Assembly: GCA_963667665.2 (NCBI GenBank) | Contig: OY763927.2 | Coordinates: 448,001 to 512,000, forward strand | Length of the DNA stretch: 64,000 nt | Direction of reading: 5' to 3' | Source of the DNA: Nitrosopumilus sp. | Lineage (GTDB): Archaea; Thermoproteota; Nitrososphaeria; Nitrososphaerales; Nitrosopumilaceae | In this document: positions 25,647 through 30,705 of the stretch, piece by piece | Layout: every line of letters starts with the position of its first letter | How positions within the stretch are numbered: the stretch's first letter is position 1 | Translations under genes and position numbers: made by a program | The notes under the pieces: model-generated | Databases searched by the model: none | Told to the model about the DNA's origin: nothing | Seen by the model: the letters and a program-made list of their open reading frames with translations, nothing else

Positions 25647-26765
25647 TTGATAATCTTTGGACTAGTTTTGTCGGGATTTGTCTTTGTAAGTCTTTTTGAT
25701 GAAGATTTGGCTTTTGCACAATCTAATCAGAATACCCTTAAACTAAGTTTTGAAGATAGTATTCTTCCATCACATGAAGTACCACTTGTTGCAGGAAATT
25801 TTTTTAATCTGATTCAAAGCTATTCTTGGGTTCGAGATGAAACAAGCAGGTATAATCTTGTGTCTTATACTATGGATGGTGAAACAGTAAAAATATCTAG
25901 AGATTCCAGAGGCGATTTTACATTAAGCATTCCAACTGATTCCTCTCATACTGTAATGTTTTCAGCTGTTTTACAATATGCTCTAAGTGTAGATGGGACA
26001 AATGATTTTTCATATCTTCCTTCTTCTCCAACCCAGGATAACTGGTTTGATGTAGGAACTGAAGTATCAATTAATGTACAAAAAATAACTGAAATTGAAA
26101 ACAACAAAGTACGACAAGAAATTACTGGACGGTCGCTTGACAAAGCAGAGTTTTGGAATATTGAAGATGATTCTACATCATTTACTACTCCACCTATTGT
26201 AATGACTGAATATCATCAAGTGGATTTCTTTAATACATATAAGTACAAACTTAACGTTCTATCTGATTCTGGGGTAACTACTGGAAGTGGATGGTATGAG
26301 CAGGGAGTTACTGTTCCAATTGGAGTTGATGTAGGTGGAGATGGTCTGATTCTAAATACTATATCTGAATGGGAGGGTGCTGATATAATTTATGATGGAA
26401 ACACTGCCCTAGTATTTGTTGATGGTCCAGTAACAGTTTCTGCAAAAGTTGAGAAAAATTATTCTCTTCTAATTGGAGTAATTGTGATACCTATTTTGGT
26501 TATTGGATTTGTTGCTGCTAAAAAATTCAAGAGATCTCCTATTGTTGAAGAGAAACCTGTAGAAAAAATCGTAGAAAGAATTATTGAAAAGATTGTAGAG
26601 ACACCTCAGAAAAAATATGAAGATGGGTATGATCTGAAACTCTCAGTATATCTTTCAGTGCAAACTCTGGCAAAACTGGATGAGATGCATTCTTCTAAAA
26701 TTATTTCTGAAAGTAAATATTCAAAAATTGTAGAGACCCAAAAATTCATCCAACAAAATCTCTAA
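25647..26765 (+). CDS. Exported membrane-anchored surface protein
   Basis: N-terminal signal (..LAFAQ), beta-rich repeats with GSGWY, TM LLIGVIVIPILVIGFVAA then a charged tail. Confidence 0.7.
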   Translation: MIIFGLVLSGFVFVSLFDEDLAFAQSNQNTLKLSFEDSILPSHEVPLVAGNFFNLIQSYSWVRDETSRYNLVSYTMDGETVKISRDSRGDFTLSIPTDSSHTVMFSAVLQYALSVDGTNDFSYLPSSPTQDNWFDVGTEVSINVQKITEIENNKVRQEITGRSLDKAEFWNIEDDSTSFTTPPIVMTEYHQVDFFNTYKYKLNVLSDSGVTTGSGWYEQGVTVPIGVDVGGDGLILNTISEWEGADIIYDGNTALVFVDGPVTVSAKVEKNYSLLIGVIVIPILVIGFVAAKKFKRSPIVEEKPVEKIVERIIEKIVETPQKKYEDGYDLKLSVYLSVQTLAKLDEMHSSKIISESKYSKIVETQKFIQQNL

Positions 26766-26893
26766 AAAAAATCTTAACCTAATTCATAAAAATCTAAATT
26801 TGATGAATAATTTTAGTAGATTTCAAAAATAAAATTAATGTTGTGATTCCTTAGAATTATTTTCTCTATGGAATCACTGTGATATCTAGCGTG

Positions 26894-26917
26894 GGTTCTG
26901 TTGCATCTTAGTGATAT
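26894..26917 (+). repeat. Left terminal inverted repeat of the IS6 element
   Basis: GGTTCTGTTGCATCTTAGTGATAT. Confidence 0.92.
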
Positions 26918-26986
26918 GAAATATGGATCTTCTGAGGATTGGCTTATTGGGTGCTAGATTCGGTTCTGTAACGTTGTCAAGTGGTA

Positions 26987-28380
26987 TTAGGATATGATTC
27001 CTATTTTGGTCAGTTTTGCCTTTAGTTCTGTTGTCGTCATCCTGTTTCCCTTCATGGAATTGCAGGACACACAAAAGCTGTTTGTTCTCATCAATATCTG
27101 CTCCACCCTTTGAGGTAGGTATGATGTGGTCTATTGTCAAATTCCTATATGGAAAGTGAACATCACATCCAGCACAATGCCCGTGCTGTTTACCGTATAA
27201 CATATCCTTGATGTTCTTTGACTGTGTTTCTTGCAATACTGGTGCTTCTGTAAGCGATATCAGTTGAGCCTCTTTTTTTGTGTACTAGTCAAGCAGATAC
27301 TCATCATGTAGTCTTCTTTTAATCAGGTTTAATGCAGTTTCAGATATGTCAATTCCTATCCATTTGCGGTCAAGTTTTTCAGATTCGATACAAGTTGTTG
27401 CACATCCACAAAAAGGATCAAGTATGACATCCCCCTCATCTGATGAAGCTTTGATGATTCTTTCAAGAAGTCGAAGTGGTTTCTGTGTAGGATATCCTAT
27501 TTTTTCTTTCCCAGATGTTATGTTTGGAATATCAATCCATGTATCACCTATTGGTTTTCCCTTGTATTTTTGGGCATATGATTTTCTTAGTGGTGTCTTA
27601 CCATCACGCCATATTATCTCATTATTAGAATCCATTTCCTTTAGGCGTTCTAATGATATACGCCATCCTGAAGAGTGTGGGTTCTTAACGCCTTTATACT
27701 CATAACAAAGATTGGGTCTGGCACCCATTGCAGGGGCACAGAATATCGGTACATCCGTATTATAATGCCCTTGTTTGTATTCGTGTGGGAATTTTTTCTT
27801 AAACTCATTTTCTGTAAGGTCAACATACGTGCCATTAAAACAATACTCTTTTTGTTTTGTGTAAAACAATATCACGTCATGATCGGAGCCAAATGTCTTG
27901 GGGTCATACTGACTACCCTTTGCACGACCTGATGCTTTCTGCCAGATGATTTCATTTCTGAAATTATTTGACTCATATTGCATCCAGAACGATTTTCAGA
28001 TAATGACTTGCAGTGGGATCACAATGAAGATACAAACTTCCCGTATTTTTCAGTATCCTATGCATTTCTAACAGTCTGATTGCCATGTAAATTGAATATG
28101 ACATAAGGTCTTCACCTGCTATCTTGTTGATGGCATCCAATACTATGTATAATGCCTCGTTTCTGTTGGCAATCTCACCCCACCAAGCTATGTCGACATC
28201 ACTTAAACTCCATGTATCCTTGAACTCGACACCTGCAGCTTTTGAGCCAATTGGTGCTGAGAAGTTCTTATTTTTGTTAAATGGAGGATCAAGATATATC
28301 AGGTCAACTGAATCATCGGACATACCTCTCATTACGTGTAAGTTGTCTGCAATGAAGACAGTTCTGTTTTTGATGGTCAA
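26987..28380 (-). pseudogene. N6/N4 DNA methyltransferase (beta class) fused to a C-terminal HNH endonuclease; two frameshifts and one nonsense codon
   Basis: DLIYLDPPFN; frameshift ~27976; NFRNEIIW, YPTQKP and LDPFCGCATT; in-frame TAG at 27285-27287; CAGC..IDHIIPTSKGG..N.QLLC; frameshift ~27070; SCNSMKGNR..; true stop at 26987. Confidence 0.9.
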
Positions 28381-28452
28381 AAACGACCACCTTTAGCATT
28401 ACTGTCTATGGATTGTGGTCTGTCTGTCCTATGACATAAAGAACCGTTTCTG

Positions 28453-28596
28453 TCATCTTATTCTCTCCTTATTCCAATACGGAGAATTACATTTTTTATT
28501 ATTGCAATTCTTGGGAGATTCGTTTCTACTATACCAAATTGCATTACAACGATTACATTCATGTCTCCAGTATGCCCCATCTACTTTCATATTCAT
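28453..28596 (-). CDS. Zinc-finger microprotein (47 aa) of the IS6 element
   Basis: Not in track. MNMKVDGAYWRHECNRCNAIWYSRNESPKNCNNKKCNSPYWNKERIR. Confidence 0.75.
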   Translation of the reverse strand: MNMKVDGAYWRHECNRCNAIWYSRNESPKNCNNKKCNSPYWNKERIR

Positions 28597-28643
28597 ACAA
28601 ATTCTATAAATTTAATACTATATAATTATTTACTACATATAGT

Positions 28644-28683
28644 TAAAAAGTATAGTATATATGTAGGTAAAAAGTATAGTATA
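28644..28683. promoter_or_regulatory. Direct repeats in the divergent promoter of the element
   Basis: TAAAAAGTATAGTATA at 28644-28659 and 28668-28683; inverted half-site ATACTATA near 28615. Confidence 0.5.
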
Positions 28684-28798
28684 ATATGAAAAATGCAATG
28701 ATGAAAAATAAAATCAAAGGCATGGGAGTGCCAATGATGTGTTTGATAGGCTCTGAGTATTCTTTCATCTCCCACTTTATAATTTTTGAGGTGTCTCT

Positions 28799-29906
28799 AT
28801 GAACGCAAGACAACAAAGAGCCAAACAAATTATGGAATTGCCAGATTATGCAAAGTTTATCGGAAACAACAAAATCAAGATTAGTTCCCAGACTGACTTG
28901 TCAAAATCATACATCATTTCAAGAACTGAAAACGGATTAATCTGTGTGTCCAGATCACACTACTAGAAAATCAGACTGCAAACACATCAAGACAGCACTT
29001 GAATTAATCAGGAATAACGAGGGTCAAAAACAGACATTTAGAATTATTGAGAGATCACTAATCAAGGTATGCAAGTTCTGTGATTCAGGCAATATTGTAA
29101 AGGCTGGACTAAAGAAAAACAAAAACTCTACTTTGCAGATGTTCAAGTGTCAGGACTGTAAGAAAAGATTTACTACAAACTTTGGATTTGAAAAGAAACA
29201 ATTTGATGAGAACACTATCTGTGGAGCATTACAAATGTACTATTCAGGAATGAGTGTAAGGGATATTTCAAACCATTATGAGATGATGGGAACTGATGTC
29301 AATGAATCTACTGTTTATCGCTGGGTTGACAAATATTCCAAAATGACTGCAAAGTATCTAAACGGTATTGTTCCAAGAGTTGGTGATTGGTTCAGGGCTG
29401 ATGAGGTATGGATTAAAATTAATGGCAAACAAAACTATCTATTTGCTTCAATGGATGATGATACGAGATATTGGTTATCTAGTGATATTGCAGATAACAA
29501 GTTTCATCACAATGCAGATAATTTACTACAATTAACAAAACTCCAAGCTGGTAAGAATCCTAGAAATTTCATTACTGACGGACTATCAGCATACAAGAAA
29601 TCATCCAAGAAAGTATTTGGACCAAAAACAAACCACGTTAGACATATTCATCTCAAAGGAGATATAAACAACAACAAGATGGAACGCCTAAACGGTGAGA
29701 TAAGAGACAGAGAGAAAGTCTTTAGAGGTCTTAAAAGAATGGATACAGGCATACTTGATGGAATGAGAGTTTACTATAATTTCACAAAAAAGCATGGAGC
29801 ATTGAAAGGTAAGACTCCTGCACAGGCTTCAATGATAGAAGTTGATGGTAAGAATCGTTGGAAAACTATCATTCAAAATGCCAGTCTAAGCAAGGATTCG
29901 GAATAA
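28799..29906 (+). pseudogene. IS6-family DDE transposase with SWIM and Zn-ribbon N-terminal domains; frameshift at ~28946
   Basis: GAGGTG SD then ATG 28799 MNARQQRAKQIM...GLIC; frameshift; CPDH..DCKHI (SWIM), CKFC..CQDC, HTH; WFRADE, FITDG and NNKMERLN catalytic triad. Confidence 0.9.
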
Positions 29907-29910
29907 ATCT

Positions 29911-29934
29911 ATATCACTAAGATGCAACAGAACC
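29911..29934 (-). repeat. Right terminal inverted repeat of the IS6 element
   Basis: ATATCACTAAGATGCAACAGAACC. Confidence 0.92.
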
Positions 29935-30705
29935 AAAATTAGAAATGAATTAATCAATTTTGGTCTTACCAAAAGTCAGGCAAAGGTATTCATCTATCTT
30001 GGAAAGTATGGATCGAAGACAGCATCTGAGATAGCAAAAGCATTACAATTGCCTAGAACTGAGACCTACCATCTAGTCAATTCACTTCAAAACATTGGTT
30101 TGGTTTTGGCAGAACTGGCACATCCAACCAAATACACTGCCAAGGATATGAAAGAGGCAATTTCTACACTGGTAAAACAAGAGCAAGAAAGGATTGACAA
30201 TCTAGCTACAAAGGAATCATCTCTTAGTGAAATGTGGAACCAGGTTCCATTTTTTGCCGTAGAAACTGATGAATCAAAATCTGAGAAAATGCAGTTGTTA
30301 CATGGGACTGGTCCAATTATAAATAAAATCAAGGATATGATACATTCTAGCACTGAAGATTTCAGAGTTTATGGAAGCATTTCAGATTTGCAGAGAATGT
30401 ACCATTCAGAAGTATTTGATTGGGTTGATGGTTCTCCAACAAATCTCAAAATGATAGTTTCACCATTAAACAATACCCCCGAATTTCTATCTGAACTAAA
30501 TTCAAATAAAATTAAAGCAATTCCATCAAATACTGAAAACAAGTGTTTCATTGTAAATGACGCAAAAGAGGTTCTCATCTTTATGTGCAATGCGACACAT
30601 CACTCAAGACAGACTTTTGCATGGTGGTCAGACTCTGAAACACTAGTAGATATGATGACTTCCCTATTTGACCTATCTTGGGAAAAAGGAGAGACTCTAT
30701 ATTGA
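29935..30705 (+). pseudogene. TrmB-family regulator, 5'-truncated by the IS6 element
   Basis: Frame reads KIRNELINFGLTKSQAKVFIYLGKYGSKTASEIAKALQLPRTETYHL directly from the TIR, with no ATG/GTG/TTG before the HTH. Confidence 0.85.

Follow-up and report, generated by a model that had tools for sequence, protein, structure and literature searches.

A relic IS6-like element with methyltransferase-HNH cargo in Nitrosopumilus and its cargo-carrying relatives

Members of the IS6/IS26 family are textbook transposons that move cargo only as two-copy composites. Here we describe an element at positions 26894-29934 of a 64-kb stretch of DNA from a Nitrosopumilus sp. genome (contig OY763927.2, positions 448,001 to 512,000; hereafter the window), in which one IS6-like transposase gene, a divergent gene for a small zinc-ribbon protein (the finger gene) and a gene joining a DNA methyltransferase to an HNH nuclease domain lie between a single pair of terminal inverted repeats (TIRs). 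Very probably it is a decayed copy of an IS6-like transporter insertion sequence (transporter IS, or tIS), in which one transposase moves everything between the TIRs and produces an 8-bp target duplication. The value of the finding lies in the family pattern, not in the decayed locus itself: an archaeal IS6-like lineage routinely carries DNA-modification genes, and here with a recent, polymorphic insertion.

In the consulted parts of PMC7986276, the IS6 consensus has GG tips and a cTGTt motif, and ISDsp3 of Dehalococcoides is the only member listed as carrying a passenger (tIS), other cargo moving in two-copy structures. Our element resembles the IS6/IS26 family (IS26, IS257/IS431, IS240 and IS6100, as described in those same parts) in its DDE domain of the IS240/IS6 profile and in its TIRs with GG and CTGTT; further likenesses are the 8-bp duplications found at a second site and in relatives, and an adjacent deletion as by-product. 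It departs from the family in length (3 kb here and 1.9-10.9 kb in relatives, against 0.7-0.9 kb), in gene number (three to four against one), in its transposase of ~375 aa with an N-terminal CxCx9CxH motif plus Zn-ribbon, and in TIRs of 24-59 bp. With ISDsp3 it shares the arrangement of one transposase and a passenger gene within one TIR pair, but ISDsp3 as presented in the consulted parts of PMC7986276 is bacterial, single-copy and has one hypothetical passenger, whereas here an archaeal lineage has varied, mostly DNA-modification cargo and a conserved small regulator-like gene. Cargo moved by an IS6-type transposase is also the mark of IS26-type pseudo-compound transposons; these have two complete IS copies in direct orientation, whereas our element has a single transposase gene, no second IS copy and 24-bp inverted ends only, the left end consisting of the 24-bp repeat and a stub. 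It has instead the make-up of a tIS, in which a single transposase and passenger genes with no part in transposition share one TIR pair. The long zinc-finger IS6 clades h/i (VII/VIII) of Clostridia, compared by description (consulted parts of PMC7986276 and PMC6807381), likewise combine an N-terminal zinc-binding extension with an IS6-type core, but they are bacterial and no cargo is reported for them in those parts, whereas the present lineage is archaeal and carries cargo.

Thaumarchaeal IS-like transposons typically have one or two genes, according to the consulted portion of PMC6563490. We found no description of cargo-carrying IS6-like elements in Thaumarchaeota/Nitrososphaerota in the main texts of the literature examined (which included portions of PMC4738411); they might appear in the IS tables of PMC6563490 and PMC13343696. 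The consulted portion of PMC6807381 does not mention Thaumarchaeota, and that of PMC13343696 does not use the word 'passenger'.

One transposase gene, one pair of ends

The 24-mer GGTTCTGTTGCATCTTAGTGATAT has two exact copies in the window, namely the left (cargo-side) TIR at 26894-26917 (+) and its perfect 24-bp inverse, the right (transposase-side) TIR at 29911-29934 (-). Allowing up to three mismatches yields no further match in the 64 kb, with 0 expected from 100 shuffles. The span from TIR to TIR is 3041 bp and contains the transposase, the methylase-HNH gene, the finger gene and a short upstream open reading frame (ORF). At both ends the tips read GG then CTGTT (GGTTCTGTTGCA...); the 'caaa' motif of the IS6 consensus is not present. 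A sequence-only reading of this DNA had proposed just this layout, perfect 24-bp TIRs around one transposase, a divergent 47-aa finger gene and a methylase with HNH, and both the sequence and Pfam bear it out. That reading had further proposed a single-transposase, TIR-to-TIR transporter of IS6 type in place of a two-copy composite, a proposal upheld by the second-site junctions and the relatives presented below.

In contigs from public metagenome runs, the two ends of the element are found at another site. In run X6, a contig links the left end with another flank, ...TTCTCTTTTTAA, which ends in CTTTTTAA; in run X8, a contig links the right end with CTTTTTAAGATTCTGGG.... In the present genome (G000, whose 1.88-Mb contig is termed C1), these two flanks are contiguous at C1:1198343-1198394 with a single CTTTTTAA, that is, as an empty site. 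In other cells, then, this site is occupied, at C1:1198365-1198372, by an element that has precisely these ends, with an 8-bp duplication of CTTTTTAA. Because no aligned contig fitted two places of the window, each junction must extend beyond the shared 24 nt. In both X6 and X8 the depth of the cargo contig is 1.6-1.7x that of the flanking contigs, which is no copy number but hints that the second copy includes the cargo. Three more public runs, drawn from three studies, have contigs with the element at the site that it occupies in the window, with no more than 1-2 substitutions per long contig; the lesions described below recur in contigs of these studies as well. The insertion is polymorphic in public sponge metagenomes.

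The second site has a feature of its own. A ~70-bp direct repeat (C1:1198303-1198372 and C1:1203041-1203110) ends in CTTTTTAA and flanks a ~4.7-kb segment that holds a distant IS6-like transposase (C1:1199343-1200440), the polymorphic insertion site lying at the first repeat. These repeats may be attachment sites of an integrated element and an insertion hot spot.

There is next to no chance, in our judgement, that the repeats, frameshifts and junctions are long-read assembly or sequencing errors, although the same contig does end in a large, fold-back-like inverted duplication (at least 24.5 kb, 99.8% identity). A 4233-nt contig of run X2 reproduces 26700-28810 with one base difference and no gap, the junctions are reproduced by the X6 and X8 contigs, and the lesions described below are not homopolymer errors, one of them being undone by an additional AA in X8.

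A more serious objection is that the locus may hold an ordinary short IS, made up of the transposase with or without the finger gene, next to resident DNA; the left repeat would then be a solo relic and the methylase-HNH gene would have been trapped. We hold this to be improbable. It would fit the lack of a target duplication at the window's own copy, and it would fit a second TIR-like stub (GGTTCTGTAACGTT) at 26962-26975 (+), oriented like the left TIR and 12 nt past the restored stop codon of the HNH part. The stub equals the first 14 nt of the TIR of a related element (L060) and the first 11 nt of the TIR of another element in G000 (locus 4, below), and probably remains from an older or alternative end. 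But no TIR-like sequence in the correct orientation was seen between the finger gene and the methylase. The left repeat is moreover not an independent insertion, a possibility that the sequence-only reading had itself raised: in other populations both ends are joined to one empty-site sequence and share its 8-bp duplication.

Comparison with relatives of the same genus also speaks against resident DNA. In five of five such relatives, right-flank homology begins at 29935, immediately outside the right TIR. The target there is a 5'-truncated TrmB-like regulator gene (29935-30705, +) without its first 26 codons; a relative's 282-aa TrmB-like protein aligns from residue 27, exactly at 29935, and the relatives hold the 26 further codons, mutually conserved, upstream of that point. 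On the other side, genomes G183, G215 and G216 align up to 26728/26729 and continue with unrelated genes, so that relatives' left-gene homology stops at 26729 and 26730-26893 is a left flank of unknown origin. Three of the five relatives have the left flanking gene on the same contig, with 3.7-4.4 kb between the flanks; in G183 and G215 this inter-flank DNA encodes a ~1050-aa and a ~260-aa protein, and both genes are missing from G000. Relatives lack a methylase-HNH gene at this locus, so the gene is not resident. The element therefore adjoins the TrmB gene after an adjacent deletion that took ~4 kb and the 26 TrmB codons.

An inversion in place of the deletion was ruled out, given that the 26 codons and the two intervening genes are nowhere in G000 apart from domain-level partial matches. 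The truncated TrmB-like gene keeps its helix-turn-helix (HTH) region and has a paralogue at C1:458212-458976.

Sister elements in G000 bear on the same objection. Locus 2 (C1:875185-878152) has its own TIRs, an intact 376-aa transposase (C1:875212-876342) that is 64% identical to the one at 28799-29906, a finger gene, and as cargo a gene, with one in-frame stop, that joins an N6_N4 methylase to an Mrr-type nuclease domain. Locus 3 (C1:1814828 onwards) is a 99.5-99.7% identical copy at another site, further broken by IS5-like and IS481-like insertions. In BLAST alignment of the two loci, identity stops 7 nt short of the outer tip of the cargo-side TIR; the remaining 7 nt are the same except for a single C/A difference, and the flanks outside the tip are unrelated. 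The cargo-side TIR is therefore the edge of identity between two genomic sites, which speaks against a solo relic. The ends of locus 2 are doubled, which would suit the short IS, as would the shorter cores among relatives (1.7 kb in L060, 1855 bp in L046), since these indicate that ends can duplicate and that shorter cores exist. Against this stand the perfect 8-bp duplications that lie outside the distal repeat in six relatives.

Locus 4 (C1:403718-406290) encodes an HsdM-like methylase between TIRs of ~41 bp and has a perfect 8-bp duplication (GTCAAAAA); exposing it was the one return of a genome-wide 12-mer scan for TIR cores that was otherwise too noisy. In its 491-aa open frame (L069, C1:403772-405247, -), an HsdM-like N6 methylase runs on into the last 190 residues of the transposase, the catalytic C-terminal part; this fusion in a 2.6-kb element is probably a deletion product. 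No TIR pairs were found for three distant IS6-like copies in G000. The count of locus 3 is doubled by the inverted duplication near the contig end (C1:1805516-1830000 versus C1:1855523-1880000, centre ~1842758), which resembles a fold-back artefact of assembly or else a giant inverted repeat.

Relatives and their cargo

The long transposase occurs in 82 of 201 family genomes and in 20 of 27 genera (a tally that includes the unpublished G077, G092 and G093). Twenty loci were picked for the similarity of their transposases, each together with 12 kb of upstream DNA, and TIRs were searched with at most two mismatches in 16 nt. TIR pairs were found at nine of these loci, enclosing 1855, 2220, 2997, 3173, 3842, 4372, 4573, 4801 and 10886 bp, in every case more than a 1.1-kb transposase gene needs. 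Related transposases thus do carry cargo within their TIRs, contrary to the possibility, also raised by the sequence-only reading, that they never do; the catalogue of TIR-pair contents that it had called for now shows methylase or restriction genes in six of the nine elements. These are Type I M+S pairs in two elements, a CfrBI-type nuclease with an N6_N4 methylase in one, an N6_N4 methylase with an unknown partner in one, and Eco57I/MmeI-like single-chain enzymes in two; the other three carry unknown small genes. Perfect 8-bp duplications lie outside the distal repeat in the six relatives already mentioned (6/9). A DNA methylase lies within 4.5 kb upstream at nine of the 20 loci, three of them among the 11 without a TIR partner.

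The methylase-HNH gene itself was found in 24 of 301 family genomes. In four genomes of other genera (G100, G318, G044 and G039), it stands divergently beside a transposase only 35-67% identical to the query, and a finger gene lies between transposase and methylase-HNH in L085 and partly in L087. This persistence of a transposase-methylase-nuclease layout across diverged transposases and several genera invites the proposal that the methylase-nuclease is a working part of the transposon, with HNH or Mrr cutting a strand or resolving cointegrates and methylation marking or timing transposition. The exchange of nuclease domains (here HNH, in the sister element Mrr) alongside a constant methylase would agree with such a role. 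We nonetheless judge it very unlikely. L046 and L060 have perfect duplications without any methylase or nuclease, the Type I M+S, CfrBI-type and Eco57I/MmeI-like modules elsewhere point to interchangeable restriction-modification cargo, and neither copy of the sister element has an intact methylase, although one keeps an intact transposase. In addition, methylase-HNH proteins form a very large family, mostly of bacteria, and the Pfam domains listed for the matches (8000 candidates scored) include no transposase.

Two of the loci have more complex structures. In L060 (G013 C1, the 2997-bp element), an inner TIR-like site would bound a 1.7-kb core of a small gene and the transposase, which hints that cargo was captured by using a more distant left end. 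L089 (G318 C1:914500-925000) packs a pair of methylase-HNH copies, a fragment of a transposase and two kinds of TIR, one of them 59 bp long, into 6.7 kb; its elements have inserted into, or recombined with, one another.

For the reading of the locus as a transporter IS, we consider the following mechanism. A single DDE transposase would recognise both GG...CTGTT TIRs and move their contents as one unit, with an 8-bp target duplication; transposition would be replicative (through a cointegrate), by analogy with IS26. The present junction with TrmB came about through the ~4-kb adjacent deletion, an outcome expected from intramolecular replicative transposition. The methyltransferase-HNH gene is passenger cargo of restriction-modification type, and its domains suggest as the likeliest role either methylation of a short motif with cutting of unmethylated DNA, or stabilisation of the element.

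Several observations weigh against this reading. There is no target duplication at the 26894-29934 copy (CTAGCGTG versus AAAATTAG), which we explain by the adjacent deletion. The inner stub and the doubled ends of the sister element show that the history of the ends is more complex than one clean insertion. The second insertion is known only from two short contig junctions from different runs, so that a relative with the same ends but other content might occupy that site. At 11 of the 20 loci a TIR pair was not found within 12 kb, and six loci with methylase-HNH (L084-L089) were picked through the methylase and so stand outside the count of cargo frequency. The family placement has its own difficulty: the best NCBIfam model is the IS6 family transposase NF033587, matched over its whole profile (1-202) with 117 bits here and 116.5 bits for the intact paralogue of locus 2, but neither reaches the curated cut-off of 125 bits. 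Since the best model is matched in full yet scored below its cut-off, the transposase is best classed, by profile, as IS6-like on the fringe of the family; PMC6807381 argues, in its consulted portion, that archaeal and long zinc-finger transposases fit the IS6/IS26 family poorly. Finally, the copy in the window cannot move by itself.

That one transposase and one TIR pair suffice for this widespread archaeal branch to move 1-10 kb of cargo alters the view of what the IS6 family can do, and gives methylation and defence genes a concrete route of mobility in ammonia-oxidising archaea. With an intact transposase paralogue, defined ends and a polymorphic insertion, the lineage is a natural system open to testing. 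Only tentatively do we suggest a wider picture, in which the lineage habitually carries methyltransferase and restriction modules within its TIRs and is a main vehicle for such genes within and among ammonia-oxidising archaea, their plasmids and their viruses, the small divergent regulator (the Zn-ribbon protein here, AbrB-like or ~70-aa proteins in other elements) and its palindrome forming a shared on/off switch for the transposase.

Decay of the transposase and cargo genes

The copy at 26894-29934 is a relic, with four disabling lesions in transposase and cargo. The sequence-only reading had pictured an element that spreads its module; at this copy that picture fails, the transposase and the methylase-HNH gene both being pseudogenes.

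The transposase pseudogene (28799-29906, +) was delimited with Pfam, NCBIfam and frame analysis and would encode ~375 aa with its frame restored. Within the CxCx9CxH motif, two nucleotides are missing from a (TG)n run (TGTGTGT at ~28944-28950), which puts the N-terminal 55 codons in another frame. The same frameshift is present in run X2 contigs. Programmed frameshifting was considered and ruled out: close relatives and paralogues keep the frame, and what was lost is a dinucleotide. Of the domains SWIM, Zn ribbon, HTH and DDE that had been read from the sequence, the DDE domain is confirmed by Pfam (DDE_Tnp_IS240, 50.2 bits against a cut-off of 27; 43.8 bits for the intact paralogue), and the other three stay motif-level readings. 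Pfam SWIM has no match at E<=0.01, HTH_23 is hit at E=0.006, and models of zinc-binding N-terminal domains score below their cut-offs. A sequence search of solved structures with the transposase gave 0 matches. In RNA run X16, contigs fall only on 26953-28509 and none on the transposase; such libraries may hold DNA, and the uncovered part proves nothing.

The N6_N4 DNA methyltransferase-HNH fusion pseudogene (26987-28380, -; Pfam N6_N4_Mtase and HNH) would encode ~465 aa if restored. Its methylase part is now divided between two overlapping ORFs (27973-28380 and 27285-27983, both -), and its HNH part lies in an ORF (26886-27236, -) that runs through the left repeat; frame analysis and comparison with homologues place the restored stop codon at 26987-26989. 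Three lesions account for this: a 2-nt deletion at 27974, a CAG->TAG change making an in-frame stop at 27285-27287, and a frameshift at ~27067, within the HNH domain's second Cys pair. Of these, the first is recent and polymorphic, since run X8 has +AA at that position and an intact frame. Both domains of the fusion named in the sequence-only reading are thus there, but the TAG and two frameshifts break it, and the intact single polypeptide of a single-chain (Type IIC-like) restriction-modification enzyme is not present. Intact single-protein homologues of 440-520 aa show that methylase-HNH was once a single gene.

Among these homologues are P0001 and P0002 (64% and 62% identity; 488 and 478 aa). 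From the 8000 candidates with most words in common, ~7700 homologues were scored. Those at the top are single-chain proteins (440-520 aa) that have both N6_N4_Mtase and HNH; most are metagenomic, and the few named ones are bacterial. By these matches the fusion is not special to this element and belongs to a large, mostly bacterial family. The nearest solved structures of the methylase, which is of the beta class (N6_N4), are CcrM, DpnA and MboIIA. As in the Type IIC/IIG enzymes Eco57I and MmeI, methyltransferase and nuclease are in one chain, and relatives of the element carry Eco57I/MmeI-like genes; unlike those enzymes, the present one combines a beta-class N6_N4 methylase with a small C-terminal HNH. 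We found no characterised close relative of the fusion and, in the literature, no description of its activity. Regulated read-through of a recurrent in-frame TAG between methylase and HNH was also considered and ruled out, since other copies have their TAGs upstream of the start or at different places.

The finger gene and the divergent control region

The finger gene (28453-28596, -), divergent from the transposase, encodes a 47-aa, four-cysteine Zn-ribbon protein (CxxC...CxxxxC). The protein matches no Pfam or NCBIfam family; in the Atlas its matches at 0.91 are all unnamed clusters, with zinc-ribbon-type families below 0.9. Relative to the locus 2 copy, identity is 94% for the protein and 79% for the DNA, and 25 of the 30 base differences are in synonymous codons. 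The gene is, to judge from these substitutions, under purifying selection.

Finger genes were found in 21 of the 301 family genomes and 10 of the 27 genera (a count that includes the unpublished G077). An IS6-like transposase is divergently adjacent at 13 of 30 finger loci (three of the 13 are in G000 and one in G077; 12 of 29 without G077). The other finger loci have different contexts, some of them, judged by eye, beside IS110-type transposase-like ORFs. Some transposases accompanied by the finger gene share no more than 28-41% identity with the query, and one element with the finger gene, in G083, has MmeI-like cargo. Since the finger gene occurs with diverged transposases in elements with differing or unidentified neighbours, it belongs with the transposase and not with the methylase, and the protein looks more like a transposon regulator than the restriction-modification controller that the sequence-only reading had suggested as possible.

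The control region between the divergent genes (28597-28685) contains a TATA-rich palindrome (28621-28641 and 28658-28678) and, from reading of the sequence, a 15-nt direct repeat, AAAAAGTATAGTATA, at 28645-28659 and 28669-28683. Several of 11 finger-transposase intergenic regions have a TATA-rich palindrome, the arms differing between elements (by eye, unaligned). We infer that the palindrome may be the operator of a small dimeric regulator; most likely, the Zn-ribbon protein would be the DNA-binding regulator that acts on it.

A mosaic origin of the finger region was looked for and rejected: there is no clear recombination block, matches to the sister element vary over ~30-79 per 100 columns, and peaks occur also in methylase motifs.

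Between the control region and the transposase, a 38-aa upstream ORF (28686-28802, +) ends in a TGA that overlaps the transposase ATG (ATGA). Upstream ORFs that overlap the transposase start were also read by eye in L118 and L125 (G318) and in L120 (G100). The 38-aa ORF may be a leader peptide or a coupling device.

The slot of the finger gene can hold other small genes. In L045, L049 and L060 (G013 and G170), it encodes mutually similar proteins of ~70 aa with the pattern MGSRN.K..KGK.YLYYIISE.GKK...YCGL, and in L053 an AbrB/MazE-like protein of 85 aa, so that differing small proteins share the divergent position.

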